DNA of 64,000 nucleotides from Euglena gracilis (lineage: Eukaryota), in contig CP154954.1 of the NCBI GenBank assembly GCA_039621445.1, positions 11,071,229 to 11,135,228 of the forward strand, read 5' to 3'. The position numbers and the translations under genes were made by a program. The notes under the pieces were generated by a model. That model did not search any database, was not told where the DNA came from, and was given only the letters and a program-made list of their open reading frames with translations. Numbering within the stretch: the first letter of the stretch is position 1; every line of letters starts with the position of its first letter. Shown here in pieces: positions 10,745-49,215 of the stretch.

Positions 10745-11081
10745 TCAATTGATATTTTTTTGTAGTCTTGTCCAGTGCATTGGTATGGGCTAAGAACCCT
10801 GTGTGTGAGATTGGTTTGTAATTGGTGGGTTCGAGTGGGGACTTTCTTAGGCTAATTAGGGAAATATGGCAAATCCTACTGTGGAAAATTGGTCGGCCGG
10901 TCTTGAAAATTTCAAAGAATCGACCCAGCAAGGTCAAACATTGAGTTCAGGCTTTCAAGCCGAACCTTAATAATCTTTTCCCTAGGTTAAATTCGACTGA
11001 AAACCAAAAAGTGGTATTTCAGTGATTTTCGGCCCCACTCAGGCAAATTTTTGCCAATTTTTGGGTTAGGACCCCTTTACA
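10570..11081 (-). repeat. Family C 5' LTR
   Basis: TGTAAAGGGG...GGTTTTCA on minus; only about two differences from 4655-5166 seen by eye. Confidence 0.92.
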
Positions 11082-17926: not shown

Positions 17927-18597
17927 GGATGTTGCATTGAGTTTGGATGAGATTCATGCAAAATCGTGCACCCCCCCGCACTTTGCCCCTCAAAACCGTG
18001 TTTTCGGTGGTCAAAATGCAACTTCCAGCTCACAACGCGCTTTTCACACACCAACCGAAGCATCTTCGGATGCCCGCCATCCAACTCGCAATTTTGTGCA
18101 TCAAATTCGCGATTCGTTGGATGCCAATCCTTCCAAAAGCGCAGTACGCGCACCCCTACAAGCATCTTCGGATGCGCATGTCCTACAAGCATCCACGGAT
18201 GCACATGATCATGAACATGCCTAAAATCGCGATTACAATCGCCCGTTTATACCACAACTTAAGATTCCCCCCCCTACGGGTGAATCCTTGGACGAGGAAC
18301 CGGTTTTTACTACAAAAACCGCAAATCCTCAGGTTTTACAACAAGAAATTTGCGAATCTGGACTGATTCGCGGTATGAGCCATACCCCTACCCCGGGGAT
18401 TGGCCATGAAGCGCTAATGCGAATCACGGAATTTACCGCGATTCCTCGATTTGCGGGTGAACAACGGGATTCCTACTCCCCTGGTATGTTACCACACCCC
18501 GAATCGCGGAATCACGACCCTTTACAATCCGAATCGCGGAATCGCGAAACACAACCATATAATTCGCGAAACGGCGATGTACCAGATACCCATGGTA
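17927..18597 (+). pseudogene. Internal fragment of a family-B gag
   Basis: LIRGMSHTPTPGIGHE matches LVRGMSQHPTPGIG in 41083..42903(-) and the start of 44565-44790. Confidence 0.7.
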
Positions 18598-22951: not shown

Positions 22952-25189
22952 TCATGGAAACATCAATGTTATGCTTCTTGTTCCACAGCTTCCAATCCTG
23001 CTGGACATACCCAACAAAACTGGTCGTTGGCTCCAAGTGTCCTCCTCGGGCCCATACCCTTTCCAGCGGACCTTCCAAAGGCGCATACCTTTGTCGATTT
23101 TGTTATCGATAATTATATCGACTACAAAGTCGTCCGTCTCAGGTAATCTGGAACGGGGTTTGAAGTGCAAACACGGGATGGGTTTCCCATCCGGTGGCGA
23201 CAGGTATGGCCTGAAGTCGTCCATATGAACGCCCTTAACACCATTCGGTAATGCGACCTTGTAACGCCTGCTGGTACCTAGTCTTTCTAGGATTTCACAG
23301 GGGCCGAGCCAGAGGAGGTCCAGCTTGGAAGACTGCATGCGAGTACGGCTATTCCGTACCCACACGCGGTCACCGGGACCATACACAGGTGACTTGAAAT
23401 TCTGCAAAAACGATTTCCGTTTAGTTCCTTGAACTTCAGTGACTCGCTTCTGGACTGCAGAACGTAGATTTTCTACTTCCGCAAACCAGGTCTCGCAACT
23501 GACACTCGTTCGGGCGGGTCTCTTCGAAGGGACATCCCCTATGGCCGGAGGGTCCCGTCCGAAAACTAATTTATAGGGGGAGTGAGGCAAAACCAACCCT
23601 GGTAAGGTATTGATATAAAACAAAGACCATGGTGGCACTGATATCCAGTTGCTGCACGAGTCAGCCAGTGAAAGGCGAAGCATATTCACGACGGATTTGA
23701 CGGCTGCCTCGGCTCTACCACTGCCTTTGGGTCGGTATACAATGGAAAAATGTTGCTCGATTCCGAGTAAACCGCACAAAGTGGTGAAAAACCTTGAAGA
23801 AATCAAATGGTCTTGATCACTCACGATTTCATTCAGTAAACCCATTAAGCAAATACATCTCTCCTAAAATATAACCGCCAAATTTTGAGCAGTCAACCCT
23901 GACTTCTGGCATGGAATGGCTACAATGTACCCACTCAGCCTGCAGACGACAACAAAAACGTAATCGTAAATTTTTTCGTCCGTTCCTTTGCACAGTTCTA
24001 ATTCCGGAAAATCCATGCAGAGGGATGTAAAAATGTCAGGGGGTACGGGGAAAAAATCCATCGTACCAGGGGGGGTACCTCTGCGGGGTTTTACCGCTTG
24101 ACAAATTTGACACCGTTGCGCTATTCGCAAACAGCGTGAGTAAAGCTCTTTCTCGCGCAGGGTTGTGCAATACCTGCGGCCCACCAACGAAAGAAGTTTG
24201 GGGGCCCAAGGGTGACCGTGGTTGTGATAGCACAAAATAACGTCATCAACCAGGTCCTGGGGGATACAATATTTGTAACCCGATTCATTGCGAAAAACCA
24301 ACCGTAAATGTGAAAGAGTGTAATTCTCCAGCACTTCGCCACTACGAAGTCTGGTGACTATGGTGTCATACACAGTATCACGACTATAATCCCATTCGCG
24401 AAAGAACAGTGGGGAAGGGGACTCTGTGCGTGTAATACGCCGGGGTCCGAACGTGCTTCCACGTCGGCGCCTCCCGCGCACTGGTGCGACCAGGAGTAGT
24501 TGTGAAACGGGAAAAGAATCCAAAAGATTATCCGCAGCGTCGTTTCGACGTGCGTATTCGTCAGCTTCCTGACTTCCATGAAAAGTCGCGTGTCCCTCAT
24601 CCGGGTTCCCAGGGTAATACCAAGGGGCCCGACTGAGCGGATCCGCTACTTTTTGTGTGTGACCAGGGGTATAAATAACTACAAGGTTGAATTGACTCAA
24701 GAACTCATACCATCTGCATCGCCTTCCGACCGATGACATGGCCTTGTTCAAATCCTCGGTGTACCAGTGTTGGGGATTCTCATGGTCGGTCTTGACGAGG
24801 ATCTGGACGAGGCTGCTGGGAACCCAGCTTCGGAATTTCTGGAGTATAAGCACGACTGCGTAGGTTTCCTTCTCTCGTATAGTCCACTTGACTTGATCTT
24901 TACCGTCGTCGCCCTGTAGCTTTCTGCTGAAGAAAGCCACAGGCCGGAGTTCATTCGCCGCGTTTTGCTGGCTAAGAACTCCGCCAACAGCGTAATCGCT
25001 GCTGTCGACTTCCAACACGTATGGTTTGCACGGGTCCGCGATTTCGAGGACAACATTCTCCAAAAGCAAAACCTTGATTTTCTCAAGGGCCTCGCGCATG
25101 TGGTCATCCCAAATGACTTTGGTGTTGTGATCAGCCCGGTTTTTGAGCTGTTTGGGGAGGGGCACCGCGATTTTTGCGAAGTCCTTCAT
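22952..25189 (-). pseudogene. pol: Family B RNase H, integrase and chromodomain
   Basis: LEVDSSDYAVGG, EKETYA, TDH, ADPLSR; HNHGH...CQIC; LCMDF, VSDQD, GRAE; WLGP; WKVRWKGYGPEEDTW. Confidence 0.9.
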
Positions 25190-26080
25190 ATATCGCGTAA
25201 TATTAAGCTAATCCCAAAAATCCTTTGATGTGTGTAATCGTTTTGATTACCTCAGGGGTCCATTTCCTGATGGCTTCGAGTTTACTCTGAGCGGCTTTCC
25301 GCTGTCAATTGCTGAGAATGTGACCGCAAAATTTAATAAGTATCCGAAACAAATGCATTTTCGCGCCTTCGCGAAAAGCACATGTTTTTGAAAAGCAGTT
25401 AATACCGCGCAAACATGGTGGACGTGTGTGACGAGAATGAGAATATCTTCGCTCGATTTTGCGGATGGTGGCGGTGTTCCCACCAGCACATCATCAATAT
25501 ACACAATGGCAAACGGTAAATCGCGTAGAACCCATTGTATCATGCGTTGAAACATGGCTGGGCAATTCTTAACACCCATGGGGAGCACCGTCCATTGGTA
25601 CACACCCTTGGATGTCACGAATGCCGTGTATGGTTAGGAGTCAGGGTGCAAGTGCATTTGGTGAAAACCGTCCTCCAGATCGAAAATTGACCACAACCGG
25701 TTTTCCGATTGTTTGGTGATCAAATCCTCGATCAGGGGGAGCGGGAAGGGATCATCCCTTGTCTGGGAGTTCAGGCACCGGTAATCCAGCACCAGTCTCC
25801 ATTTCATCTGACCTGAGGGGTCTGGAGGTTTAGGAACAACAAATGCCTGGGATGCCCACTCGCTTTTCGAGGGTACGATCCACTTGCGCCGGATAAGCTT
25901 CTCAATCATGTCATTGAGAGCTTGTTCGCGTTCTCCCGAACAACGAAAGACTTTCCGGTGCATCGGTTTAGCTCCTTCCTTAAGCTCGGTCTTACAAACA
26001 CCGAACGGACCGCGTATCGCGGGGTCGATGTCGCACGCGTATACTGGATTTTCCAGCACACCGTGAAATTCGCGGGTGAT
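25190..26080 (-). pseudogene. pol: Family B reverse transcriptase
   Basis: WRLVLDYRCLN, IFDLEDGFHQ, LPMGVKNCP, VYIDDVLV; interrupted by stops and frameshifts. Confidence 0.92.
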
Positions 26081-26199
26081 CCGCGAACAGAATTCGGCTG
26101 CCTTGGGATGCTGCCCTGCACTCTCAATGACTGCGGAAACCACCAGGGTATCCCTGGGGCTACCGAGCTTCCTCGGCACCGCGAATTCGGACATTTCGA

Positions 26200-26600
26200 A
26201 TGCATCGAAGAAACATACGCGAAAAATGATTTCTTGCAAGGGTGGTAATATTTTACCACAAAAATCTTCAAAAATTGGTACATTAGTGGGTAAATCCCAC
26301 CAATGAAAACATACACACGATAGTTGGGTGAACCATTCCGCTTCCGGAATGATGGGTATGAGAATAACTCCACGGGCTTCATCCCGCAGAGTTTTGTCAA
26401 CCGCACATTCGATAAGTTTTGAGGGAGGGTGCATCCATAACACCGTATCACCCCAAAATTTATCAAATGCGTTGGAGTGTTGTGACCAATGACGTGGCAA
26501 ACGGGCATGTGCATTGGATGAAAAGGCATCGATTTCCAATGCCAAATCAAATGAATCAGCCAATGTCGCGATTTTGGAAAACCGTTGTTCCAAAATGCGA
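26200..26600 (-). pseudogene. Dam-like N6-adenine MTase domain between PR and RT (catalytic motif reads HPPS)
   Basis: LEIDAFSS...NAFDKFW...LWMHPPS...GVILIP...EWF is colinear with the NPPF/NPPW domains at 59732-60427 and 32810-33193. Confidence 0.8.
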
Positions 26601-27466
26601 TATTGACCAAAATTTAAAGCATTCCATACGCGTTTCGCGTATACATGCACCCGATTCCCGGGTTGGGGTGACGAAACACAATGAATGGATCCACAAACAT
26701 GCGGGCAGTCTTCCACTTCCTCAAGGGTTAACCCAGGGGAGTTTGGACAGGTTGGGGTTTTCTCCATTCCGCATCAAATCCGTACCAAGTTTGATTGCGA
26801 TTAAAATTAGGAATGACGCTTTTCGCGTTTCTAAACGAGGCTAATCCGCGTTGTTGGAGTGCTCGGTGTATCTCCGCGCATTGCGGGCTACAACCAAGTG
26901 TATCATGGCGTGTGTATTCCGTCTTCGGAATTGTGATTAGTGTCGGATTTTGAACTAGACATCCACAATCGAAATCCGATTGGGTGGATATTCTCCTGCA
27001 GTGCACACATTGGAAGGACGTGTGTTGGTGTGACAGGTGTGCGTGTAAGTGGGTGTCGATGGCATTAGCCGGTGAGTCTTGTACAGGTGTTCCTGGGTTC
27101 GGCACAATTGGTGGGAATCGGCGTGGTGGTGTAGCTGGGCGACTACTCGACACCGTGATCCCTGCAGGCCTTTGGGCTTTCGTCTTGTAACCCAGTGGAA
27201 CGGTGTGGGTACCGCTACCCGCTTGCCCTACCTCATTTGGAACGCATGTAGGTGTGTCATTGGGTAGGAGTGAGGCTTTCTACGTAGCCCGAGTGTGGAA
27301 AACGGTTGTTGGTGTGGTGGATAACGGTGTTGCCACTGTGTGTAACGGTGTTGGAAAACTGGTGGTCATCATAGTGGATGTCAACGGTGATGGTGGTTTG
27401 GGTGGCATTGCAGTGTTGGGTGCTGTGCGCAAACCGTGGGAGTCGTAATCCACAACCAATCGGTAC

Positions 27467-27956
27467 TGTTCACCGGCCCCACCCCCTGTGCGCCGCCGGT
27501 CGCCCCTGCGACCGGCGAGTCCCGGTGGGCCGAGGGCCCGGGGGGGTTCTCGCCGTCGTGGATAACCACCGACAGCAGGGGGGTGGGTGTTTCCGGGGTG
27601 GGGCCTGCGCTTTCTCGGGAAATTGGTGGGCTCAAGCCAACCCCCATTTTTTCACCCAGGTGATTTCCCCAACCCCAGCCGGCGCGTAGGATCGTTTTTT
27701 CAAAGTTTTCCGAAATTTTAGTGAAAAACGATCCTACGCGCCGGCTGGGGTTGGGGAAATCACCTGGGTGAAAAAATGGGGGTTGGCTTGAGCCCACCAA
27801 TTCCCCGAGAAAGCGCAGGCCCCACCCCGGAAACACCCACCCCCCTGCTGTCGGTGGTTATCCACGACGGCGAGAACCCCCCCGGGCCCTCGGCCCACCG
27901 GGACTCGCCGGTCGCAGGGGCGACCGGCGGCGCACAGGGGGTGGGGCCGGTGAACA
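27467..27956. repeat. ~230-bp-arm inverted repeat made of two head-to-head copies of the LTR 3' (U5) end
   Basis: 27467-~27698 is the reverse complement of ~27724-27956, with one mismatch seen and a short spacer. Confidence 0.9.
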
Positions 27957-30900
27957 TGGTTAGCAGAGGTCGGCTCACTGACTTCGTCAGTGAGGTTTTT
28001 TCAGATTCGGTGAACGTTGTTGCAGAGATTTGTTCCGCTGCCTCTGCCAGCAGAATCAGTGCAAAGTTTTCAGATTCGGCTGACATCACAAGCAAAGGTT
28101 GTTTCACTGACCCAGTCAGTGAAAATTTTTCAGAGACGGTCAACACGGTCACAGAGGATTGTTCTGTTGGCTGTGTCAACAGAATGGTACACGAGGGCAG
28201 TTTCACCAACTCAGTTGTCTGTGAATATTCAGAAGAATCTGCAGAAATCTGCTCGTTTTCAGGTCAATCTGTCCGAGTTTCAGATTGTGGTGAAAATTTT
28301 CTGAGATCTGTGGCAGAAATCTATTTTCAGAACGAAAAGGAAACTGAGTTTTCTGCAGCCCAGTTTTCAGAACCTGTGGCATCATTGCAAATCGTGACGG
28401 AATCTGTGGCAGAAAACAATTTTCAGGCTGCAGAAACTTTATCGTCTTCAGAATTTTCAGAAACGACACAGGAATCAGAATCTGATTCTGATTCGGGGAG
28501 GGGGGCAATTACACGCATAAGGCCCATCACGGTGGCAGGGCCAGAAAATTTTCAGCTGGTTCCACTGCACAGCAGTGATGAGGAACCAGACCCCCCAGCT
28601 TACGAAAGTGAAACAGAGGAAGAAAAACAGGCTGAAAACGCAATAATTCAGGAAATGGTTATGCAAAGAATGAAAGCGGCTGGCATGTGGCCAGTAAATT
28701 TTTCAGGTTTTCAGCAAATTTCTGTGTCGTCACGAGACAGCAGCCCAGGGCCAGAACAAAAAATGTTGTGTTTAACAGCCCAGCCAGAACCATTGCTGTT
28801 AACACAGAGTTCAGAAACGCAGTCAGCACAGCCAGCTGCAGCCCAGCTGCAGGTTTTTCAGCCAGCCCAGCAGTTTTCGGCTGAGTCATCTGTTTCAGCA
28901 ATCATGGAGCCAGCCCAGATGACTTCACAGGTTTTTCACCCAGCCCAGCAGTTTTCGGCTGGGTCATCTGTCCCAGCAATCACGGGGCCAGCCCAGATGA
29001 CTTCACAGGTTTTTCAGCCAGCCCAGCAGTTTTCGGCTGAGTCATCTGTTCCAGCAATCATGGGGCCAGCCCAGATGCATGGGCAGGGTTTTCAGCCAGA
29101 GTTAACAATGTCTTCAAACACAGGCCCAGCCCAGGTTTTTCAGCCAATTCAGCCAGATTTTCCACAGACCCAGTCACAGAATTTACAGCCAAACACCAGT
29201 TTTTCTGCAGAAACTGGGTCCGAAAACCCTGAAAATCAGCATGATGTGGAAATGGAATCGGGCTATGGCCAATCTGATGATGATTGGAACAATTGGGGTG
29301 AAGAAATCAGTTGCAAAATTGAATGTTTACATGGCAGACTTTTGGTGCAGGAAGGAAAAAATCCTGAGAAAACGGCTGAAAATCTGGTGGGGGAGGCAGA
29401 AAACAGGCTAAATCGGGCATTGGCCATGTCACATGGGCAGACATTGAATCTGGTCAACGAGGCATTGGGCATGCATGATGGGCGAATGGCTGATCACATT
29501 GCCATGGTGAAACGTGAAATTCAGGCTGAACTGAGTGCAACTGTAAACGACTTGCTTTTGCAGTTTCAGCAAAATGGTGAAATGGTGCAAAATCTGGCCC
29601 AATGCCAAAGGCATTTGTTGGGTGTGGAAATGGAACGGCAGTTTGCTGAAAAAGTGAAGAAAGTGGAGGATGGAGTAAACACGTTTTTTGAGGCCCAGGT
29701 TGAGGGGTTGAGAAAAAATGAGAGGGATTTTTCTCAGAAGCTGTCGTTTTTGGAAAAATCTGTGGGGGAGATGCACGTGGTGGTGCAACAAGTGGGGGAG
29801 AAGGAAAAACAGCAGGGAATTGCTGTTAATCAGGTCAAATCTGCAGTCGGTGAGCTAAGATCTAGTCTGGAGGGACGCTTTGGAGTCATTTTTCAGCAAT
29901 GCAAAGGTTTGGGGGAGACTGAGTGTGCCAAATTTCAGGCACAGGCTGAGAAATTGAAGGAATTTTCACAGTCCCTGGAGCGAGAGAGCAAAGCTCTGAA
30001 TGATCGTTTGGGGAGGTTGGAGAATTTTCTGGGTCGGAAAGATTTTCCCATTGAGAAAGTCTGTGACCTGATTAACAAGAGTGAGGAAACAATTCGGTTG
30101 GAGGTGCAAAGGGAGTTGGGGCTGCAAACGAGAAGGAATTTGGAGGTCATTATCAGTGAAATGTTGCAGGAAAAGTTGAGGCTAAGTGAAAGGGAGGGGC
30201 AGTTTGAAAAAGTGCGGGCTGAAATGGAAAACTCGATGAAACAACAGGTTGGAGTTTTACTGCAACAGCAGTGCGTTGAACTTCAAAAAGAACAGCAGGA
30301 ACGGAAAAAATTGCAACAAAAGCTGGATTTATTTCAGGCTGAGTTTTTGGTGATGAAAAATCAGCAAGCTGAATCTGCCAAATCTGCGACAGTGGATCTG
30401 ACAAAGGAAACGAGAGAAAAATCAGCTGGAAATTCAGAAATCGAGGAGTTTGATCTTTTTGGTTACAACGATTTCCCTGCGATCGAGAAAAATCCGGTTG
30501 AAATTGAAGACTATGAATACGCTGAACCAGGATCACATGCGACACATGTCAGGCAGGTTTGTGCACGACCTGTGGGGGCAGTACCTGCAGGTGCAGGGCT
30601 GGTTTCATCGAATGCAGTGGCAACACATCAATTGATGAAAAACCTGGTAGCTCCAAATTTTTCTGGACAGCCAAAAGACTGGTCGTCCTTTGTGAGGGAT
30701 TGGGATCAATATTTCAGGACGGTGGTTATTTTACAAAATGGAAATGTGTCTGATCCACTCAAACTTCGGCTTTTTGCAATGACTCTGGACGACACGAATC
30801 AGAAGGAATTGCAATTCCGACTGGAATTGAACGGAAAAACATCTTTCGAGGAGGAATTTGACAGGCTTGAAGGGAAATATGCTGGAACTCAATCCGAGTG

Positions 30901-31918
30901 TGCCAGAAAAAAATGGTATGATGTGAACCTCGTGAACCAAGGGAAAATTACCGTACAGGAATGGCGAGATTTTGTCATAAATTTCAGAATAGCCTGGAGA
31001 CAGGTGAAAAGCGCCACTGACGATGAGGCAGAAAGACTGGTCAAGGGAAAACTGCCAAATTTCATTTTGCATTGGGTCGCCGATGAGGAGGAAAGGAAAT
31101 CAACGTGTGGACCGAAAGTCAAAATGTACCCTGGAGTGCCTGCAACCGAGGAAAACATTATTTGTGCTGTGGAACGTGTCACTGGGGAAAAGCCCTGCAA
31201 GGTTTCGAAAGTTTCACCGCTGGAGTTCGAAGTCTTTTTGCCCAACACTACGATTTGCGACAAACTGAAGGAGGTCAGTGGGAAACCAATCACAGGCACG
31301 GATAAAAGGATCAAAATTGTGGAGGAACAGCCAAAAATGGGAGTTGAAGAAATTTTCCGTTTTGTTGAGCGAAAATTGTCTTCCAGGAATTCTCAAGACA
31401 TGATACACAGTTCCAGGGAGCCAAATGCATTTGGAAACCAGAGGGCCAGGTCTGCTAGGGCAGATCGGGCCAAGGGGTCCAGGACACCCTCCCCAGCACG
31501 GTCAGCAAAGGGGGGCGAAGCGGTGGCAAAACCGTCCGTTGGAAAATCAGATTCACAGGTGGCAGCCCCTGCGACCAATGCAAACATGAACCCCCCCGTG
31601 CAAAATCCAGTGCCAGTGGTTCGATCACAGTCATTGCCACCCCCCCAGCAATCTCAATTTGGCAATCGGGGGGGATGGAGAAATGATTCTGCGTGGAATT
31701 CCAATGCCAATGCCAATTTTCAGGGAAATCAGTGGTGGCACTCAAATCAACAGAATTTTGATTCACAGTCTGGTGGTGGCAAAGGCAAAGGCAAAGGAAA
31801 GGGCAAAGGAAACAATTCTTGGGGGAAAGGAAACAATGGAAATGACTGGTCTAGGGGAAAGGGCCAGGATGGTGGAAAAGGCAAAGGAAAAGGAAGGGGG
31901 AAAGGAAACCGTTGCTAG
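27776..31918 (+). CDS. gag: Family A Gag/ORF1, 1380 aa: acidic N-term, 26-aa Gln-rich repeats, long coiled coil, capsid-like region, GK/N/W-rich tail
   Basis: Intact ORF in the gag position with an FSGQPKDWSSFVRDW capsid-like motif. No CCHC knuckle; the true start codon is uncertain. Confidence 0.82.
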   Translation: MGVGLSPPIPRESAGPTPETPTPLLSVVIHDGENPPGPSAHRDSPVAGATGGAQGVGPVNMVSRGRLTDFVSEVFSDSVNVVAEICSAASASRISAKFSDSADITSKGCFTDPVSENFSETVNTVTEDCSVGCVNRMVHEGSFTNSVVCEYSEESAEICSFSGQSVRVSDCGENFLRSVAEIYFQNEKETEFSAAQFSEPVASLQIVTESVAENNFQAAETLSSSEFSETTQESESDSDSGRGAITRIRPITVAGPENFQLVPLHSSDEEPDPPAYESETEEEKQAENAIIQEMVMQRMKAAGMWPVNFSGFQQISVSSRDSSPGPEQKMLCLTAQPEPLLLTQSSETQSAQPAAAQLQVFQPAQQFSAESSVSAIMEPAQMTSQVFHPAQQFSAGSSVPAITGPAQMTSQVFQPAQQFSAESSVPAIMGPAQMHGQGFQPELTMSSNTGPAQVFQPIQPDFPQTQSQNLQPNTSFSAETGSENPENQHDVEMESGYGQSDDDWNNWGEEISCKIECLHGRLLVQEGKNPEKTAENLVGEAENRLNRALAMSHGQTLNLVNEALGMHDGRMADHIAMVKREIQAELSATVNDLLLQFQQNGEMVQNLAQCQRHLLGVEMERQFAEKVKKVEDGVNTFFEAQVEGLRKNERDFSQKLSFLEKSVGEMHVVVQQVGEKEKQQGIAVNQVKSAVGELRSSLEGRFGVIFQQCKGLGETECAKFQAQAEKLKEFSQSLERESKALNDRLGRLENFLGRKDFPIEKVCDLINKSEETIRLEVQRELGLQTRRNLEVIISEMLQEKLRLSEREGQFEKVRAEMENSMKQQVGVLLQQQCVELQKEQQERKKLQQKLDLFQAEFLVMKNQQAESAKSATVDLTKETREKSAGNSEIEEFDLFGYNDFPAIEKNPVEIEDYEYAEPGSHATHVRQVCARPVGAVPAGAGLVSSNAVATHQLMKNLVAPNFSGQPKDWSSFVRDWDQYFRTVVILQNGNVSDPLKLRLFAMTLDDTNQKELQFRLELNGKTSFEEEFDRLEGKYAGTQSECARKKWYDVNLVNQGKITVQEWRDFVINFRIAWRQVKSATDDEAERLVKGKLPNFILHWVADEEERKSTCGPKVKMYPGVPATEENIICAVERVTGEKPCKVSKVSPLEFEVFLPNTTICDKLKEVSGKPITGTDKRIKIVEEQPKMGVEEIFRFVERKLSSRNSQDMIHSSREPNAFGNQRARSARADRAKGSRTPSPARSAKGGEAVAKPSVGKSDSQVAAPATNANMNPPVQNPVPVVRSQSLPPPQQSQFGNRGGWRNDSAWNSNANANFQGNQWWHSNQQNFDSQSGGGKGKGKGKGKGNNSWGKGNNGNDWSRGKGQDGGKGKGKGRGKGNRC
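28850..29100 (+). repeat. 78-bp coding tandem repeat (QVFQPAQQFSAxSSVxAIxGPAQMTS)
   Basis: Three full units here versus two in copy 1 (12994-13149). Confidence 0.85.
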
Positions 31919-32185
31919 GATAGCCGGGGTGGACCGTTGGGGGCGGGAGCCGCCCCGGGCTCGCATACCCAGCCCCACACAAAGACATACACAACTCCCA
32001 GGTGGCAAGAAAAATCTCGTGTGAGTGAAAACACGATGAAAAATCTGCCATCCAAGGAGACTTCTGTGCAAGGTGTGTCCAATGTGTCGGGTGCGTGCGT
32101 GCGTGACGTGCAAATCTGTGACTCGGCCCAAATCTGTAAAAAATCAGATCTCGTAAGAGATCGTGCACAGCCTTCCGTAAAGAAA

Positions 32186-32773
32186 AGAGCTTTAGACCTT
32201 TTTTGCGGTAAAGGCTCGGTTGGGGATTGCCTGAGAGAGCAGGGGTTTAAAGTGATTTCAGTGGATATAAACCCCAGATTTAACCCAACCCACTGTGCAA
32301 ATATTTTGGAGTGGAGATATTGGAGGTACCCCCCCGGATATTTTCAGATCATCGCTGCGGGGGTGCCCTGTACAGAATATAGCTTGGCCAAAACATTGGG
32401 AGTCAGAAATTTGGAGGGGGCAGATCGGCTGGTCAAAAAAACTTTGGAGATTGTCGAATATTTCAAACCAAAGTTGTGGTGGATTGAAAATCCCCGTCAT
32501 GGACTTTTACGCAAAAGACCCTGTGTTCAAAATCTGACTTTTGTCGATTGTGACTAGTGTCAGTTTTCAGATTGGGGATATCAAAAGCCCACCCGAATCT
32601 GGGGGAGCGAAAATCTGAGCAAGCTACAAAACAAACTTTGTGATGGCCAGACCTGCCCGAATTTGATTCCTGGGGGGAGGAGTCACCGAGAAAAGTTGGG
32701 AGGATATGGAATGACAGTTGGCACCCAGAAAAAATGGAGGATGCCCAAACAACTGGTGGAGTATTTGTTAACC
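32186..32773 (+). other. C5-cytosine DNA methyltransferase domain
   Basis: Motif I LDLFCGKGS, II-III VDIN..CANIL, IV GVPCTEYS (catalytic PC), VI IENP, VIII-like QKPTRIW, X-like MPKQLV. Confidence 0.88.
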
Positions 32774-32809
32774 GTGTTGGAACGAAAAAGCGGATATCGT
32801 AGGGAGGAT

Positions 32810-33193
32810 TATGCTGTTAGGAAAGTTTGTATGGAGGAAATTGAGAAGGAATTTCGGGTTAAGGCGGAACGGGATTGTTTTGCAACCAGCCAAAATACCA
32901 GGTGTGAAAAGTTTTACGGGGAGGATGATGATGCCATGAAAAAGGATTGGGGGGCGGAGGAAACGTTGTGGATGAACCCCCCCTGGACTTTGTGGCCTGA
33001 GGTGGCTGAAAAATTGCAAAATTCCAATTGTCGGGCGATTTGCATATGCCCAGACTGGAATAGGAGGTGGGTGAAAAATCTGGTGGAGATGGCTGTCAAA
33101 AAGATTTATCTTCCCAAGGGGACAAAGTTGTTTGAGGCTGATGGGAGGATTTTGAGGGGTACCCGTTGGGGGGTGTGGGCCTTGTTGATTGAT
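32810..33193 (+). other. Dam-like N6-adenine DNA methyltransferase domain
   Basis: DCFATSQN..FY...DAMKKDW....WMNPPW..ICICPDW: the phage-Dam/DIRS-MT type pattern. Confidence 0.85.
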
Positions 33194-36100
33194 AGAAGGC
33201 AACCCTCCCAGGGGGGGGCAGCCCCAGGGAAGAAAAAATTGGTGCGGCTGAAAAAAAGAATGTTGAGGGGGACAAAAACTCGGGGAGGATCGAAGAAACT
33301 TGGGGAGGACAGACAACTGCTGTTAAAAACCCAGATTAAGTTGGCAAATGGGGAGGAAAAAACGGTTAGAATTTTGATTGACACGGGAGCTGAAGCAAAC
33401 CTCATTCGACAAGGGTTGATAGGGGACCACCTAATGTATCCTGCTAAGGACCCGTTAAGGTTTGAAACTGCCAATGGGCAAACTTTGGCGGGGGGGGAGC
33501 AGATGTGCTAAGGTGAAAATGATCCTACAACAAAATTGGAATGAGGAAAGGGAAATTGAGAGGGTGGAATATGAGGTTGAATTTTATGAGGCAAATATCA
33601 AAGTGGATGCAATTCTTTCTTATCCATGGTTGGCAGAAGCAAAACTGGGAATTTTTCCACACCACAAGGCGTTGGTAAAAGACAGCCCCGACCTGATTTT
33701 TTTGCGGGGTGTTGAAAGACGGAGGGGTCCGCAAAAATTCAGGGATGACACAAATTTTTCAGTGGACAATGTGACTGTGGCGGACGGGTCTTCGTTTGGG
33801 TTGCAAAAATTTGGTCTTTGTTTGCCTTTGGAGGGGTTGGACCAGGAATTGCAATTTTTGAGCGATGAGGACCTGGGGGAGGTTGCCACAAATTTGGAGG
33901 GAAGTGACCCCCCAGTGCAAGTTATCAACCGAATGATAATTGCAAGGGAGGGGGAGGACAAAAAAGAGGAGGAAAGGGTAGTCAAGTTGAGGGAACAAGT
34001 TTTGGAAGATTACAGGGGGACGGTATTTCGGTCATCGCCATTTCCAGACCCCCCCGAAAGAGGACAATATGGTTATGCATACATACCTTTGAAGGAGGGG
34101 GCGAAGCCAACCAGACAGAAGCCTTTTTTCATGCACGGTGAGCGGAAAGAGGCACTTGAAAAAATCACCCAAGACTGGCTCGACAAAAAATACATTGAGC
34201 CAGCCACAGCCAAAAATTCTGAATGGCTGTCCCAGACTTTTCCAGTTCCAAAAAAATCCAACGATTTTCCTTGGAGGGGGGTGGTGGACCTCAGGGGCCC
34301 AAACAGCCAAACAAGGCGATGCAACTACCCCCTACCCAAAATTGAAGACATTTTGGTCAAACATGGTGCAAACCAAATGTTTTCGATTATCGATTTGAAG
34401 CAAGCTTTTCACCAACAACCCTTACACCCAGAAAGTCGACCCATAACGTGTTGTTTTACCCCCAAAGGCATTTTTCAGTGGAGGGTGAACGTAATGGGTT
34501 TGACAAATGCCCCCCAGCAATTTCAGCAAATGATCGATGACCGTTTGACACCAGTAAGGGATATCGCCACAGGGTACATAGACGACATACTGGTGGGGAC
34601 AACGGTCGGGGAAGGGGAGGACCTGGTGGGGGCACACGAAAAAGATTGGAGGGTGTTGGAGGTGCTGAAAACAGAACTTTTGGTGGCTGATGAATTCAAA
34701 GCCAAACTTTTCGTTGAGGAGGTCGAATTTTGTGGACAGATTTTAGGAAACGGGACTAGGAGGCCTGCACCGGGTAAGTTACGAGCGATCGAAAAGTGGG
34801 AGGTTCCAAAAACAATTACGGCTTTGAGAGCCTTTTTGGGATTCACAAATTATTACAATGCATACATTCACATGTATGCGGAAGTAGCTGCCCGGCTGCA
34901 AGACAAATTGAAAGTCCCCAGGGAGGTGGGAAAGAAAGGAAGTCGAAAACCTGTGGAATTTGATGGGGAGGATTTAAAAGCTTTTGAGGAGCTGAAAAAA
35001 AGGTTGTGTTCGGGCCTAATGTTGCAACGGGTAGACCCAGATAAACCCTTTGTGCTAAGGGTTGATGCCAGTGGGTACGCCGTGGGGGCAACGTTAGAAC
35101 AAATGAAGGAGGGGGGAGGAAGACCCACAGCCCAGGATGTGATTGAGAAAAAAACTGTGCCAGTGGCTTTTATGTCTCGAAAATTGACCGAGGGGCAAAG
35201 AAAATGGACCCCCAGGGAGTTGGAGACGTACGCCATAATTTTGGCACTACAAAAATGGGAAAGTTGGATTGGATTGCAACCCGTTTTGGTTTTAACCGAC
35301 CACCAAAGTTTGGAGTCTTGGACAAGGGAAGTCCTAGACACCCCCAGTGGTCCGGTTGGGAGGAGGGCGAGATGGCATCAAATTTTCTCCAAGTATGATT
35401 TGACGGTGGGATATATCCCGGGTAAAGAAAATACCATAGCGGATATCCTTAGTCGGTGGGCATACCCAGCTTCACAGGCCTTAAGGGATATAAGTAAGCA
35501 CGGGTCAGCCGAAGACAAGGATGAAATGGAAAATTTTATCCGGGAGGAAAAAGAAGAGGAAAAACAGTGTTTGGAGATAAGAATCAAAAACCAGCCCAAT
35601 TTACGTAATGCCTGGATACGGGGGGTGACAACCCGTAGTGGCAAAAACGTAACCCCTGAGGAGGAAAAAGGAGAGTGCACAAGGAGGGGAACCGAGGGTG
35701 GGGTAGACCCAGGAGGAAAAGACACCCCTGTGGACACCCACTCACAAGGGCCCAGGAAAGAAAAGAAACGAGTTCATTTTTGGGATGAGAAAGTGGGGGG
35801 GGAGACGACCCCTGTCCCGGGGACGGCTGAAAGTTCGAGGGGGGACACTCGTATGGAAGTGGGGGACGCCCTGCCAAGTACGACCCCTAAGGATATTAAG
35901 CCCGTATGGGAGCGTGATTGGGGGGAAGCATATTCCCGATGCCCCACATGGAAAGAAAAATGGGAGGCTACCAAAGGTGGTTCAGTTTGGCCCAAAAGCT
36001 ATAAAGTCTTGAACGGTCAACTGTTTTTCGAGGAAAAGTTGTGTGTGCCTGAAAGTTTTCAACACTTGGTGATTCAAGAAAATCACGAGTTTTTGGGGCA

Positions 36101-37840
36101 CGTTGGCCCTGAAAAAAGTTTGGAAACACATGACAATCCGTTTTGTTTGGGCTGATGAAAAGGCTGCAAAGCAACTCAACCAAAATTGCAGCAAAAATTG
36201 TTACACATGCCAAGCGAGTGTGAGGGGGGAGAGTTTGAAAGGACCGATCGAGTCCACACCCATACCCCCTGCACTAATGACAAGTGTTGCCATTGATTTG
36301 TTTCGGATGCCAAGGGTTTTACACGATGGGGGGGAGTATGACACCCTAGCCCTTTGTGTGGATAGGCATTCGGGTTGGATTGTGGGGGTTGCATGCAAGG
36401 ACAAGGGATTAACCGGAGCCAAGTTGGCTAAGGAAATGGTGAAAAATCAGTGGAGGCCTTTTGGGGTTCCCTCGGTCATCTCAAGTGACCAAGGGAGCCA
36501 TTTCACAAGCACTTGGTGGAAAAACATGTGTGCGCTTTTGGGGATTAGGCAAGCATATTCCCAAGCATACCACCACCAAGCAAACGGGAGGGTTGAGAGA
36601 GCCGGACAACAGGTGATGGAGGTGTTGAGAAAATTGTACGTGGAGGAAAAAATTAATTGGGTTGAAGCTTTACCCCAAGTTTTGGACCGAATTCATGACG
36701 TAAAGGGGGAAAGCGGATTGAGCCCATATGAAATTGTGACCGGTAGGGAAAGACCATTGGCAGGGGTACCCTACCAACCACCCAAAGAATGTGAGGATTC
36801 GGTGGAGTTTTTCCGAAGGATGCAAGACATTGATGGGAGGGTGGCTAGGATACTCAACAAAAAGCATGAGGAGGAGGTGGCAAGGATAAATAAGGGGAGG
36901 AAAGAAATGGAACCCCTAAAGGTGGGGACGACAGTTTGGTATAAGAGACCCGAGGGGTCGGGTGAGAAGCTTGACTCTAGGTGGGTGGGACCTGGGGTCG
37001 TGAAGGGAAGAGAGGGGGAACGGAGTTATGTAATTGAGATGAAATCTGGGGTGGAGACGAAAGCTCATAGGAGTTTTTTGAAGAAGTATCGGGAACCCCA
37101 AGTGGAAGGTAAGGGGGTGCCTCTTTTTTATTATAAACGAACCGAAAAAGAAGAAGAGGCATTACCTGATGAGTGGGAGGTGGAAAAAATCGTAAGGCAC
37201 CGGAAAGGAAAAGATGGAAAGTGGGAATTTTTAACAAAGTGGGTCGGATATGAGGACGGGGAGGAGACCTGGGAACCGGCAGGAAATTTCATTCACCGTT
37301 TCAGTGGAGAGTTTGTAAAGTATTGTCGTGAGAAAAAAGTGAAAATGGACATAATGTCCGAACTTAAAATTGACGGTGGGCCGTAGGCTCTAAGGTGAGC
37401 CATAAGGCCCTGTCCAAAGGCTCTACGGTGAGCCTAATGGGAAGGCAAAGTGCTGTTTTTAAAATTCAAAAACCCGATTTGCACGTCCGTGTGGGTGTGA
37501 GTGCACGCACACACGCGTGAGCGTGTAAAGGAGAGAATGTACAAATGCAAGGATTTGCAAGGAGAATGGAGAAAGGTAAAAAAAAAAAAAAGGCCCCGCA
37601 AGGGGGCCGGGGCACCTCAGCATATTCGCCGCCGCATTGCTGTTGTACTCGCCCCACTGCGCTTATATTTGCCCCACCGCACTTATATTTGTACTTGTAC
37701 TCGCCCCACTGCGCCTATATTTGCCGTCCTCCCCTCTTCCCTCCCGGTGTTGTAGGTTTGGAGATTGATTCTTTGAGATGATGGATTACATTACGGTTGG
37801 GAGCTTTTGGTCATATTATGAGCCCCCCCTTCGGTTTTGC

Positions 37841-38175
37841 AAAATCCCCCCGGCCCGAGGAGGGGGGGGGGGGCTTGAATTTTTTAAAAATCCCCCCGGC
37901 CCGAGGAGGGGGGGGGGGCGCTTGAATTTTTGACAAAAATCCCCCCGGCCCGAGGAGGGGGGGGGGGGCGCTTGATTTTTGGACAAAAATCCCCCCGCCC
38001 CGGGGAGGGGGGGGGGGGGCGCTCGTTTTTTTGAAAAAATTCCCCCCGGCCCGAGGGGGGGGGGGGGGGCGCTCGATTTTTTGACAAAAATCCCCCCGGC
38101 CCGAGGAGGGGGGGGGGCGCCAACCGAATTTTTACCAAAAATCCCCCGACCCGGTGGAAAGGGGGGGGGGGCAGA
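37841..38175 (+). repeat. ~50-bp G/C-run tandem repeat, about 7 units, in the family A 3' UTR
   Basis: AAAATCCCCCCGGCCCGAGGAG(G)nCGCTTGA(A)TTTTT recurs near 37841, 37887, 37937, 37986, 38037, 38087 and 38137. Confidence 0.88.
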
Positions 38176-38442
38176 TCTTGGTGAAGACCCTCATTCCACC
38201 CGTGAGAAGCGGGGGGAGGGGGGGGGGGGGGCAGCCAAATATCCATTGGTTGGTGAACCGAATCTTTCCCAAGGGTTCGAAGGCACTTGAAAGCCATAGT
38301 CCCTGAATTTTGTTTCCCGTTTGGTTGGTTCAAGGGATCATGTGTGGGACATAGGCTTTGGGTGAAGGAGTGCCAATTGGAGGAGTTCCCCCCTCTTTGG
38401 TGAGGGGGGGGGGGCGAGTTTTTGGTGTCCGACTAAGGTCGC

Positions 38443-38453
38443 AAGGGAGGGGG
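38443..38453 (+). promoter_or_regulatory. Polypurine tract
   Basis: AAGGGAGGGGG immediately before the TGT of the 3' LTR. Confidence 0.85.
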
Positions 38454-39300
38454 TGTCGGCCGCCGGCTTTCGCCGGCAGCCAAAAATTGCCAGAAAGCAC
38501 AAATTCCAAAGTCGCGGGTAACAGCCAATCAGTTACAAAAACCCGCGACACAAATTGGAAGCGGGTCAAATTACTTTCCACCTTCAAATTCTGTTTTTTC
38601 ACAGAACTTGAGGGGTTTTCCCCATTATCCCCATTATTTGGCAAAGCGGAAATACATTGAAGTGGATTTGATCAATCACATTGTTGAATTGGAATTGACA
38701 GTTACCTTGTTGGTCATTGCATTGTTGGTGGAGTCATTGAAGTCAATTTGGTATTGAAATCAAGAAGGAGAACCCTACAACACCGCCAACCTCACCGCTG
38801 CCCTTACCCCCTTCCCCCTTCACCTCCTTGCCCCAAGGTTTGCACATTTCATACATTCACATTTCACAGTTTCAGTTTCAAGTGTCTTCTCATTCAAGTT
38901 TCGGAGTTTCAGAATTCAAGTTTCTTTCAGTTTTGGCTTCAAAGTTCCAAGTTTCAGTGGGTTGGTTTTTGCCTACAAGGTGTGTGAGAGAGAGAGAGGA
39001 GAGAAGTGAGATTTGCACACCAAATGGCAGATTTTTTGTTTTTCACAAAAATTTCGGAAAACATTGAAAAAACGATCCTACGCGCTGGCTGGGGTTGGGG
39101 AAACCACCTGGGTGAAAAAATGGGGGTTGGCTTGAGCCCACCAATTCCCCGAGAAAGCGCAGGCCCCACCCTGGAAACACCCACCCCCCTGCTGTCGGTG
39201 GTTATCCACGACGGCGAGGACCCCCCCGGGCCTTCGGCCCACCGGGACTCGCCGGTCGCGGGGGCGACCGGCGGCGCACAGGGGGTGGGGCCGGCGAACA
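38454..39300 (+). repeat. Family A 3' LTR (847 bp)
   Basis: TGTCGGCC...GGCGAACA; homologous to 11318-12169. Confidence 0.9.
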
Positions 39301-39304
39301 GTAC

Positions 39305-39660
39305 TGGCGTAAAATGGGTATCCCAAAATTACGTCAGACCCGTGATTTCCGGACTCGTAACCGAAAATATTGGTGAAATGTTGCAATTGTGGGGGGGGTG
39401 AGTGATGCTTGGGGATGATGGGCAAGAGTATCTCGAGCACACATCCCAAATTACCACGGACACATGGGGGTGTTATCCGCGGCTGTAATTTTGATCGGTT
39501 TCTTGGCGCTTACCAAGAGCGGGGTCGGTATCAACCCGAACCGAAAGAGCAGTGCAATGCGACAACCAGTGTCAACGAGAATTTTAACTTTAGTGGAGAA
39601 ATTTTGAATGCGGATTTTCCATTGGTGGTACGCAAAGTGAAGGTTCTGGCGGAAATACAT
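39305..39660 (-). pseudogene. Family B aspartic protease
   Basis: KILVDTGCRIALL...DVILGYPF. Confidence 0.82.
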
Positions 39661-40021
39661 TTGCCTGCCAGCTTTCCTATGAACCGTTTCCTACTTTGCT
39701 CAGCATTCCGAGCGGAAATGTGGAGTGGGGGGTAGGGGACCCGAAATAATTCCGGGTACTGACCGTGAAGGTGGATGGGCAGGGGGGGCAAGGTTGATCA
39801 GGTCTTACCTCCATCTGTTCATCAGCCCAGAGGTCCGAGCCCTCGGACCTCGGGCTCCCCTACTCCAAGTCCGAACCCGCCGCATAGCCGGAAACGGACT
39901 TTTTGGTGGAATAGATGTAATTCAATGAGCGCACCGCCATTCGGGCCTCATTAAATTCTCCGTCCGAGGTCTCATCCCCCTCCCTGCCCGAAGCCGGGGT
40001 GTCCTCCTCCAAACAACAAAG

Positions 40022-46599: not shown

Positions 46600-49215
46600 T
46601 GTGTACCAGGCGTATGCTTCTGTCCCCTCCCGTTGAAGAAGTTAGGATGGAAGCAGATCTTATTAGGATTTCCTAATGGGTGCCCGTTCTCTCTCCACAG
46701 GTGGTATTCTTCTTTATGCCTTTTCCTTCCTTTCCATCGGACCGGACTTGGTTATCCAGTCCGTCCTCCCCGCATTGCTCCGTGCTTTGCTTCTTGGGAA
46801 GTGGGAAAAGGGATTTTCTGTTACTCTGATTTTCAGTTGCCAAGTAGGTGCGCCAAGGCGAAAGCGAAGGCTTTTGGGAATTGAGAAAGGAGAATTGGGA
46901 ATCAGACGTACACTTGGTAGCAGATTAGGTCACGATCCTACACATACAGCCCATACAGAAAGAAACGCTATCAAGTATTACACTTGGTAGCAGATTGGTT
47001 ACGATCCTATACACACTTCACAAACAGAAAGGCTACCAGGTATTATACTTATTAGCAGATTAGGTCACGATCCTACACATACAGCCCATACAGAAAAAAA
47101 AGGCTACCAGGTATTACACTTGGTAGCAGATTGGTTCGATCCTACGCTGACTGGCAGAGGAGAGCCCCTGCACCGTTATTACACGGTCGCAGCGTCAGCT
47201 CCCGGCTTCTAGTCAACGTCTAAGCAGACGAGCAGGCTCCGGAAGGCTCTGTGCGGTATTACCCGTTACAGCCCCTCTGGTGCCAGCACAACTGCTTAGT
47301 TTTGTGGGTTTTTGCTGTTTTTGTCATCAGAAAGATGCAAAGCACAGGCCCCAACCATCAATTCAATTATGCCTTATTACAGGCATCATTGCAAGACATT
47401 GACCAAGAAACAGGGGATTGGAAGCTTTTATGTGAAAGTGCTTCCAGTTCCCACGCCGATGAGGCACAATTGGTTCAATTGTCAAGATTGCAACATTTGT
47501 CATCATTGACAGTGGTCGGCGATGAGCCCTCCACTTCATTGGCTTCAGAGGCTAATGCGGCCTCTTCCGCACTCACCTTGCCACAACGGGGGTATTCGCC
47601 TCTGTCTGCGGCAATGACACCCCGGCTTCGGGCAGGGATGGGGATGAGACCACGGATACCGATTTCGACGAGGCCCGCATGGCGGTGCACGCGTTGAAAT
47701 CCGTTTATACCTTTAAAAGGCCCATAGCCGGCTATTCGGCCGGTTCAGACCTGGAGTAGGGGAGCCCGAGATTCGAGGGCACGGACCTCTGGGCTGATGA
47801 ACAGACGGAGGTAGGACCTGATCAACCCTGCCCCCTCCCTGCCCATCTGCCTTTCTGGTCAGTACCCGGAAAATTTTCGGGTCCCCCCACTCCAACTTTC
47901 CGCTCGGAATGTTGTGCAAAGTAGGAAAGGGTTCATGGGAAGGCTGGCAAGAAATTGTATTTTCGCTAGACCCTTCACATTTTGCTTACCCCCCATGGAA
48001 CTTTTCGTCGAAGCGGAAATCAAAATACAAAATTTTTGTGCAAAAGTGAAATTTCTCATTGACACTGGTTGTCACATTGCACTGCTTTCTCGGTTCGGGT
48101 TGATACCAACACCCCTCTTGGTGCAAGCCAAGAAGCCGATCAAAATTACGACGGCTGACAACACCCCCACGTGCGGTGGTGACTTTGGATGCCTTTTGCA
48201 TATAGTCCTACACCTCATCCCCAAGCACCACTCACACCCCCCCAACCGCAGAATTCTCTGGATACCTGGGGATATGAGTCCAGAATCCATGGTTGTGACG
48301 TAATTCTGGGATACCCCTTTTTTACGTCAGCTGGATTGCCACTCCCACGGTTTGCGCACATCACCATTCTTTTTCTTACCCCCCAAACCTTCATCACCTG
48401 TTGCGTCAACCGCGACGAACACCAATTTTTCCACACCGTTTTCGAAAAACTTTTACCCCGTTACCAACCACACCAACCAACGTTTTCCACACCGTGTGTA
48501 CCGAGAAAGTTCACCCCCTGCCCATTGACACACCAACTTCCGTTCCCCATGAGGCAGGGCAAGCGAGTAGCGGTACCCCCCTCGTTTCACTGGGTAACAA
48601 GACGAAAGCCCAAAGACCTGAAGTGATCACGGTGTCGAGTGGTCGGCCAGCTGCATTAATATCCCGTTTTCCACCAGATGTATCGCTGTCAGATACATCT
48701 GTACACCCCCCAGCAGCTTCAAAGTGCATCCCAACTTTTACACACACCCTCACCAGACCAACATGCGCGACCAGGACCACTACTCTGACACTTCCTTCCA
48801 ATGTGTGCACTGTAGGTGAATTTCCGCCCAGCCAGATTTCGATTGTGGATGTTTAGTCCAAACTCCAACACTCATCCCGATTTCGCTCACCCATACACTT
48901 GGTTGCGGATCGCAATGCGCGACCGTACACCAAGTGATCCAACAACGAGGTATTGCCTTGTTGTCTGGGACCGCGAAATCCGTGTCACACACCTCCCCCA
49001 CCTCCATCTGGCACGGTATGGACTGGGTATGCACCCATCCAACCCCTCAACCCTTCTTGGGAATGCCCCTAGGGAGTGTGGATGACACACCCTTGACCTA
49101 TGTTTGCGGATCCCTGAATTTTGTTACCGCTCTTCAACCCGCGAACCAGGTCGACACCTACGCGACGCGCGTACGGAACGCATTTAATTTTGGTCAATAC
49201 CGCATTTTGGACCAA
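46600..49215 (+). mobile_element. Deleted family B copy: 5' LTR (46600-46912), repeated PBS, gag start, protease; truncated just before the Dam domain
   Basis: LTR matches 56540-56854(-); MQSTGPNHQFNYALL; FLIDTGC; ends at NAFNFGQYRILDQ, homologous to the pre-Dam segment at ~26600. Confidence 0.82.
46909..47145 (+). repeat. Four tandem 65-71-bp units, each beginning with the LTR end and PBS
   Basis: TACACTTGGTAGCAGATT..G..CGATCCTA near 46909, 46979, 47044 (degenerate) and 47115. Confidence 0.88.

Follow-up and report, generated by a model that had tools for sequence, protein, structure and literature searches.

The pol region at positions 31919-37386 of the 64-kb stretch of Euglena gracilis DNA analyzed here (the window) belongs to a decayed copy, hereafter copy B, of a high-copy Ty3/Gypsy chromovirus-type long terminal repeat (LTR) retrotransposon. 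The element is laid out as LTR, primer-binding site (PBS), long gag, in-frame TAG, Pol, polypurine tract (PPT) and LTR, and the predicted order within Pol is a leader, a compact C5 cytosine methyltransferase (MTase), a Dam-like MTase, protease (PR), reverse transcriptase (RT), RNase H (RH), integrase (IN) and a chromodomain. As far as the main text of the source permits comparison, it is almost certainly the same as the Euglena representative of the "EpiLTRs", LTR elements combining DAM, DNMT and chromodomain that Fernandez-Moreno et al. reported in May 2026 from C. tetramitiformis and E. gracilis (bioRxiv 10.64898/2026.05.21.726589). The anatomy of the element, its host, its copy number, its intactness at the family level, purifying selection, the folds of its MTases and its presence in RNA-type libraries are established by the data given below. 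Taken as a whole, the reading of an EpiLTR-type element with this layout and with the mechanism proposed further below is in our view probable.

On the plus strand, the element is covered by a chain of stop-to-stop open reading frames (ORFs; 27725-31918, 31919-32557, 32558-33511, 33459-36155 and 36073-37386), the first of which is the gag frame. Pfam placed the DNA_methylase family PF00145 in the second ORF (E 2.9e-5, 24.1 bits with a cut-off of 22, N-terminal third of the model only) and the Dam family PF05869 in the third (E 5.4e-11, 42.9 bits with a cut-off of 28.1), followed by the protease, RT, RNase H, integrase and chromodomain models listed in Table 1. LTRs bounded by TG...CA with an adjoining PBS and PPT, the order PR-RT-RH-IN, a DDE integrase and a C-terminal chromodomain assign the element, on sequence features, to the Ty3/Gypsy chromoviruses. 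Membership in the DIRS group was considered as well and rejected, as the integrase core rve (PF00665) was present and Pfam found no tyrosine recombinase in the ORFs of the element. Rfam at gathering thresholds gave no match within the window.

The C5 module carries FCGKGS (32201-32218), VPCTEYS (32363-32383) and IENP (32483-32494) at the places of motifs I, IV and VI. Across 37 aligned sequences with 34-65% identity to the window, G16 of the S-adenosylmethionine (SAM) loop, D35, C70 (PC) and E109 (ENP) were invariant, as were K142, T144 and R145, with motif VIII present as Q-K-P-T-R only. C133, C160 and C165 were likewise invariant and H175 nearly so, and this Cys/His cluster may bind zinc. 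The canonical motif VIII QxRxR and a target-recognition domain (TRD) between motifs VIII and IX were not found in the module. Compared with the PDB, the alignment profile reached motifs IV-VI of DNMT1 at E 2e-4. The AlphaFold model of the module had a predicted local distance difference test (pLDDT) score of 92.1 and its leading Foldseek matches were DNMT3B/3A, DIM-2, DNMT1, M.HhaI and M.HaeIII (E 2e-8 to 3e-7, probability 1.00); the module is accordingly modeled with the catalytic fold of C5-MTases.

The Dam-like module, which directly follows, contains DCFAT (32873-32887) and NPPW (32975-32986), and N61-P62-P63 together with several tryptophans were invariant among 17 aligned sequences. Two further profiles matched this segment, phrog_111 at 6.2e-11 and the phage N6A methylase TIGR01712, which at 3e-10 and 39.9 bits fell short of its cut-off of 97 bits. 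The model of the module (pLDDT 88.3) retrieved N6-adenine MTases with Foldseek, the best being PCIF1/CAPAM (E 4e-5, TMq 0.63), followed by KsgA, Erm, RlmJ and METTL16, so that the nearest solved structures are RNA adenine methyltransferases. A phmmer search of the segment against the sequences of the PDB matched no chain, even at E 10.

A second copy of the element, copy A, lies upstream of copy B on the same strand. The two are about 96% identical between 27724-33846 and 11937-17927 (alignment block 4.9 kb) and they carry different lesions. Copy B has a TAG at 32555-32557 inside the C5 module where copy A reads TAT, while copy A has a TAA at 16408-16410 where copy B reads TAC. In addition, copy B contains one extra G in the G-run at 33490 (frameshift in the protease) and an additional nucleotide in the A-run near 36112 (frameshift in the integrase), and copy A has an extra GG at 17292 and lacks one G near 17504; the indels that differ between the copies lie in homopolymer runs. 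That copy B carries two 1-nt insertions follows from the E. gracilis transcript protein P0116 (EP00667_Euglena_gracilis_P000113, 1540 aa, Dam to chromodomain), which maps across three successive frames of copy B with 98% identity in segments 1 and 2 and 87% in segment 3. This EukProt entry also identifies E. gracilis as the host of the element.

Contigs of four public runs, namely X1 (DNA), X15, X17 and X20 (metatranscriptome), were aligned to 31000-37500 and showed the family to be intact at these sites. Among the 20,668 contigs of X1 that fit this interval, position 32557 was read as T (TAT, not TAG) in 81738 of 82172 depth units, and every contig of X15, X17 and X20 had the same base. None of the contigs of the latter three runs contained the additional base at 33490, and the one at 36112 was absent in X15 and X20 and in about half of X1. 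One X15 contig of 1113 nt spans the C5 and Dam modules (32161-33273) with 19 differences and no gap, and the region is also covered by the X20 metatranscriptome. The contigs of X15, X17 and X20 all start within 32154-32161, that is, within 8 nt of the conserved start of the C5 module, whereas the DNA run X1 continues. This shared start may only mark a branch point of the assembly graph between diverged copies and is a weak hint at most, as contigs cannot show transcript ends.

The ratio of non-synonymous to synonymous substitution (dN/dS; Nei-Gojobori, copy A versus copy B) was 0.21 for the C5 module (213 codons) and 0.13 for the linker and Dam-like module; the gag core had a value of 0.24 and the protease one of 0.09. 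The pol leader gave 2.85 (10 differences only) and off-frame controls gave 1.67 and 2.02. These low ratios indicate that constraint at the protein level acted on the ancestors during most of the divergence. Together with the invariant catalytic residues and the confident models matching MTases, they make both modules look functional at the family level. The observed/expected ratio of CpG was 0.56-0.59 in the copies versus 0.96-0.97 in two neighbouring stretches, and 29 of the 198 differences between the copies were transitions in a CpG context, with CpG sites making up about 5.5% of positions. Such depletion and transition excess fit methylated CpGs.

A protein search retrieved 140 relatives (101 of near length and 39 longer), of which 138 contain the C5 module of about 200 aa. 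The order C5 then Dam was found in 26 of them, the reverse order in 15 and Dam alone in 2. The remaining 97 have C5 with no Dam detected, many of these coming from short contigs. Pfam analysis of five long ORFs identified two uninterrupted environmental ORFs, P0105 and P0106 (1763 and 1911 aa), with the order C5-Dam-RT-RH-IN-Chromo, while P0110 showed Dam-C5-RT and P0113 a wide spacing between C5 and Dam. Since the whole arrangement is present in the second copy, in 26 of the 140 relatives and in two uninterrupted environmental ORFs, a chance arrangement is disfavoured. In P0117, another environmental relative of full length (1965 aa), the C5 and Dam modules flank a histone-mRNA-hairpin-binding domain (PF15247 SLBP_RNA_bind, E 6.4e-23), which is one more nucleic-acid-related domain captured in this lineage.

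The first-pass annotation, made from the letters alone, had described a chromovirus-like element with a single frame running from a C5-MTase through an amino-MTase to PR-RT-RH-IN-chromodomain, two copies with different lesions and a consensus that is open with its catalytic residues intact. Pfam order and motifs agree with the single frame, and the direct LTRs, the rve integrase and the C-terminal chromodomain with the chromovirus assignment. The stop codons and G-run indels differ between the copies as it had stated, and both the TAT of the library contigs and the uninterrupted relatives P0105 and P0106 support an open consensus. The profile search and the per-domain dN/dS of the two copies likewise came out in its favour, with PF00145 and PF05869 above their cut-offs and the ratios between copies A and B non-neutral for both MTase modules.

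With respect to its origin, the C5 module appears, as a lead from profile and sequence comparisons, to be a minimal enzyme of a phage-like type and not a host DNMT. The N-terminal half of the window module matched phrog_363 (9.5e-13) and phrog_757 (1.6e-7) versus 2.9e-5 for PF00145, and the nearest ESM-Atlas clusters of the natural homologue P0003 were viral PF00145 proteins of 212-219 aa (score 0.95, a lead only). A stand-alone protein of 213 aa, P0142, is 39% identical to P0003 across the whole module, including the Cys/His cluster, and has relatives on 63 IMG/VR contigs. At two of these loci (L013 and L052), PHROGs identified replication proteins and a weak large terminase match among the neighbouring ORFs and Pfam found Prim-Pol only; the contigs bearing the compact C5 are therefore referred to as phage-like, not as proven phages. 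P0023 and members of its cluster (P0142, P0143, P0146 and P0147) from marine metagenomes occur as stand-alone proteins of 212-213 aa and as a tandem double module of 423 aa. A FastTree tree was built from 138 complete modules (model positions <=12 through >=198 covered, which retained 33 of the 63 viral loci), unrooted and comprising the compact modules without eukaryotic DNMT families. One branch with an SH-like support of 97 separated 39 stand-alone or viral rows from 99 retroelement rows, a split that in this unrooted tree is compatible with transfer in either direction. The preprint places the EpiLTR DNMT as sister to DNMT4; DIM-2, the second Foldseek hit of our C5 model, does not discriminate this placement. 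The phage-like lead bears on the source of retrotransposon DNMTs.

The gag-like ORF contained no Pfam family and no zinc knuckle, and its first ATG straddles the LTR/PBS border. The N-terminal part (27956-29300) of this unusually long ORF has acidic FS(D/E)xV-type and QVFQPAQQFSA-type repeats, the number of which is unequal between copies A and B (69-nt and 78-nt indels). Gag and pol share one frame and are one TAG apart, an arrangement identical in copy A (15997-15999). Searching metagenomes for relatives of the C5 module (80 loci kept, 141 confirmed), we surveyed this junction in the 7 best that have upstream sequence. In four of the seven, a G/K-rich gag tail (91-213 open codons upstream) ends at one in-frame TAG or TGA, beyond which the frame continues into the C5 module. 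In these four and in both window copies, i.e. in six of six cases, a purine comes after the stop together with a hairpin-forming stretch rich in G+C (0.60-0.78). The recurrence of the in-frame stop in four of seven relatives suggests that Gag-Pol may be made by TAG readthrough.

Table 1. Features of the retrotransposon copies A and B in the window
Feature	Position	Strand	Remarks
Copy B, whole element	about 27453-39310	+	Defective copy
Inverted duplicate of last ~267 bp of LTR	27463-27729	-	96.3% match to 39304-39038
Copy B 5' LTR remnant	27724-27956	+	Last 233 bp, ending ...AACA; 97.0% identical to 39068-39300
gag-like ORF	27956-31915	+	1320 codons; acidic repeats, long helical middle, G/K-rich tail
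PBS-like TGGTTAGCAGAGG	27957-27969	+	Directly after LTR; putative, no tRNA matched
In-frame TAG between gag and pol	31916-31918	+	Proposed readthrough site
pol leader/linker	31919-32161	+	Poorly conserved; of the differences in its 81 codons, 9 are non-synonymous and 1 is synonymous
Compact C5 cytosine MTase module	32162-32806	+	Motif I FCGKGS, motif IV PC, motif VI ENP, KPTR, Cys/His cluster
Dam-like (PF05869) N6-adenine MTase module	32807-33193	+	DCFAT, NPPW
Aspartic protease	33347-33650	+	Pfam in ORF 32558-33511; DTGA 33380-33391
Reverse transcriptase	34248-34742	+	RVT_1 in ORF 33459-36155; YIDD 34575-34586
RNase H	35034-35396	+	Two RNase H Pfam models in ORF 33459-36155
Integrase	36084-36573	+	HHCC zinc part and rve core (PF00665) in ORF 36073-37386
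Chromodomain, Pol C-terminus	37174-37290	+	PF00385, E 9.3e-10, residues 368-406 of last ORF
pol stop codon	37384-37386	+	
~50-bp tandem repeats	37835-38172	+	Between pol and 3' LTR
Polypurine tract AAGGGAGGGGG	38443-38453	+	Directly before 3' LTR; putative
Copy B 3' LTR	38454-39300	+	TG...CA; 84% identical to copy A 5' LTR (11318-12163)
Copy A	11318-17927	+	5' LTR, gag, TAG 15997-15999, C5, Dam, PR start; similarity stops at 17927

Both LTRs are intact in neither copy. The 5' LTR of copy A (11318-12169) gives an LTR length of about 850 bp, the 5' LTR is followed by TGG..., and copies A (12169) and B (27956) have an identical 14-mer at the LTR end. In copy B, a palindrome of the LTR 3' end (27467-27956, 490 bp, self-complementary at 97.4%) has taken the place of most of the 5' LTR; it may have arisen by foldback or be an artefact of assembly, and because of this rearranged 5' end no target-site duplication could be defined for copy B. 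The sequences on either side of copy B (26935-27452 and 39311-40003) adjoin each other without a break in another repeat copy at 47616-48876, and copy B is therefore inserted in another element.

In total, five retroelement pieces with MTase modules are present in the window. The host element into which copy B appears inserted is a minus-strand chromovirus at 22955-27452 and 39311 to about 43948. Its ORF 25637-26773 encodes a Dam-like domain before the RT (E 1.1e-17 with a hidden Markov model (HMM) built from our Dam alignment, 1.8e-4 with Pfam), RNase H and the integrase zinc part are found in 23867-25207, and SH3 and Chromo in 22955-23863; the corresponding C5 HMM detected no C5 module in this element. 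A further minus-strand unit at 4655-11081 is bounded by LTR-like repeats of 512 bp (4655-5166 and 10570-11081, 99.6% identical). Its ORF 6774-7958 contains a degenerate C5 module (HMM E 1.2e-22) in which PC and ENP are lost, no RT was detected in the unit, and it may represent a recombinant or else a non-autonomous derivative of young age. On the plus strand, a Dam-like module at 59636-60424 (Dam HMM E 2e-31, no Pfam match at 0.001) adjoins direct repeats of 184 bp at 59428-59611 and 60850-61033. This nested, MTase-rich neighbourhood, the in-frame stop, the minimal phage-like C5 and the domain-order variants are treated here as leads.

In the mechanism we propose, occasional readthrough of the TAG would yield Gag-Pol. 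As the N-terminal part of Pol in this readthrough product, both MTases would enter the virus-like particle, where the protease would free them. They could then act on the nucleic acid of the element itself, be it nascent cDNA, an RNA:DNA hybrid or a new insertion, while the chromodomain would steer integration. A new copy bearing 5-methylcytosine (5mC) and/or N6-methyladenine (6mA) might then pass for self and remain transcribable. According to the main text of the preprint, CpG methylation is the default in the host and 6mA lies on a subset of active promoters, DAM-bearing LTR elements carry more 6mA, and an RNA:DNA hybrid is proposed as the DAM substrate. Pre-marking of the cDNA or of the insertion site is our hypothesis, drawn from the domain content. 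In its most far-reaching form, both writers would be of phage ancestry, would travel on readthrough Gag-Pol and would modify single-stranded cDNA or an RNA:DNA hybrid, pre-marking the new copy with 5mC and "active" 6mA; this we regard as unlikely. If true, a C5 enzyme of about 200 aa with a Cys3-His cluster in place of the TRD would represent a new minimal class of eukaryotic 5mC writers, its specificity would come from substrate structure or partner domains instead of a TRD, and the DNMT4-sister placement given in the preprint would need revision towards a viral origin.

Several observations weigh against the EpiLTR-type reading and its mechanism. Both window copies are dead and the 5' LTR of copy B is rearranged, and the two-copy dN/dS reflects selection on active ancestors only. 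That X15 and X17 derive from RNA is no more than a guess, and X20 may contain carried-over DNA. About 35 Cys-rich residues occupy the usual place of the target-recognition domain in the C5 module, which makes its binding to duplex DNA uncertain. At the gag-pol junction, the upstream ORF is in a different frame in two of the seven relatives and one is open to the contig start with no stop; the predicted folding of an 81-nt stretch comprising the gag TAG and the sequence after it does not exceed that of shuffled sequences (z -0.03), and programmed readthrough is for this reason something we infer by reasoning. Finally, according to the preprint, E. coli showed no rise in 6mA when heterologous eukaryotic DAMs were expressed in it, and the expression of E. 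gracilis LTR elements is low or undetectable.

One or both modules may instead act on RNA, with the Dam-like module writing N6-methyladenosine or, next to the cap, its 2'-O-methylated form (m6A/m6Am) on the transcript of the element and the C5 module 5-methylcytidine (m5C), and thereby modulate the stability, translation or packaging of the genomic RNA. DNMT2, for example, writes m5C on tRNA. The best solved matches of the Dam model are RNA adenine MTases, the C5 module is without a normal target-recognition domain, and the negative E. coli assays as well as the RNA:DNA hybrid suggested by the preprint authors point in the same direction. The Foldseek ranking may however only mirror which structures have been solved, since at the sequence level the Dam segment had no match among the chains of the PDB. 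Moreover, the profiles matched by the two modules represent DNA MTase families (PF05869, TIGR01712, phrog_111, PF00145, phrog_363 and phrog_757) and the top structural matches of the C5 module are all DNA C5-MTases, and an RNA role in place of one on DNA is improbable in our estimate. Alternatively, the modules could be catalytically dead passengers or structural or binding domains, such as SAM-independent binders or spacers, that write no mark. The same heterologous DAM assays were negative, and the C5 relic at 6774-7958 on the minus strand, having lost PC and ENP, illustrates that the module can decay. Yet the PC cysteine, the ENP glutamate, the SAM-loop glycine and NPP are invariant down to 34% identity, dN/dS is 0.13-0.21, and the presence of the module in 138 of 140 relatives in three domain orders argues for selection on the module itself. 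We consider inert passengers quite improbable.

That the fusion is an artefact of nested insertions or assembly chimeras has to be considered as well, given that the preprint warns of nested insertions and of chimeric transposable elements or assembly artefacts in E. gracilis and that copy B is itself nested in another element and palindromic at its 5' end. Nevertheless, the same order and frame recur in two window copies, the order is found in uninterrupted ORFs of 1763 and 1911 aa from other assemblies, in 26 of 140 relatives and in the E. gracilis transcript proteins P0116 and P0064, and C5 and Dam lie together on a single contig of 1113 nt, all of which leaves this explanation scarcely credible. 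For the EpiLTR-type reading, the combination of writers of the 5mC and 6mA type with a reader of histone marks would amount to a wider DNA-methylation toolkit than that of some model eukaryotes, and the element could show how parasites manipulate host epigenomes beyond mere evasion.

Among known systems, gammaretroviruses express Gag-Pol by stop-codon readthrough. The element resembles this type in that gag and pol share a frame interrupted by one stop codon, with a purine and a stretch rich in G+C after it, and differs from it in being a protist Ty3/Gypsy chromovirus with no stimulatory structure demonstrated. Its C5 module shares the length of about 200 aa, the motif order and the Cys/His cluster with the compact phage C5 MTases (phrog_363 and phrog_757); the phage forms, in contrast, stand alone on viral contigs, whereas the retroelement modules are fused into Pol. 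The presence of PF05869 inside a retroelement Pol is a likeness to DIRS elements with a Dam-like domain, from which the window element is set apart by its DDE integrase (rve) and direct LTRs. Retrotransposon-encoded C5-MTases with proposed self-methylation of cDNA have been described by de Mendoza et al. 2018 (PMC5890265) for DIRS and LINE elements in Symbiodinium (SymbioDIRS-Dnmt3, SymbioLINE-Dnmt) and for Dnmt3-bearing elements in charophytes. As presented in the portion of that study considered here, these belong to the DIRS and LINE classes, carry DNMTs of the Dnmt3 or an orphan lineage and have no combination with a Dam module or chromodomain.

The closest systems are those of Fernandez-Moreno et al. 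(bioRxiv 10.64898/2026.05.21.726589), the one work on such a design that turned up in the literature searches; it reports DAM-bearing LTR elements in several eukaryotes and derives the LTR-borne DAMs from DIRS. The structural part of the first-pass annotation is upheld by Pfam, PHROGs, fold models, selection and relatives. Its claim of novelty, made for the two MTases fused upstream of a Gypsy protease, is superseded, because the preprint already reports DAM + DNMT + chromodomain LTR elements from E. gracilis, and the discovery of the design belongs to it. The EpiLTR of Cymbomonas tetramitiformis is likewise a chromovirus with DAM, DNMT and chromodomain, but its DNMT is appended at the 3' end of pol, whereas both MTases of the window element are N-terminal and precede the protease; the preprint itself calls the Euglena layout "structurally distinct". 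The Euglena EpiLTR shares the host and the set of PF05869 DAM, PF00145 DNMT and PF00385 chromodomain with the window element, and the main text of the preprint shows no difference between them. The Euglena domain order, an in-frame gag-pol stop, a compact phage-like C5 and shuffling of the domain order were not found in that main text. To the published system the window adds a resolved anatomy with exact borders and both copies' lesions, a Gag-Pol that is probably made by readthrough and would package the two enzymes, purifying selection on both modules and the phage-like C5 lead.

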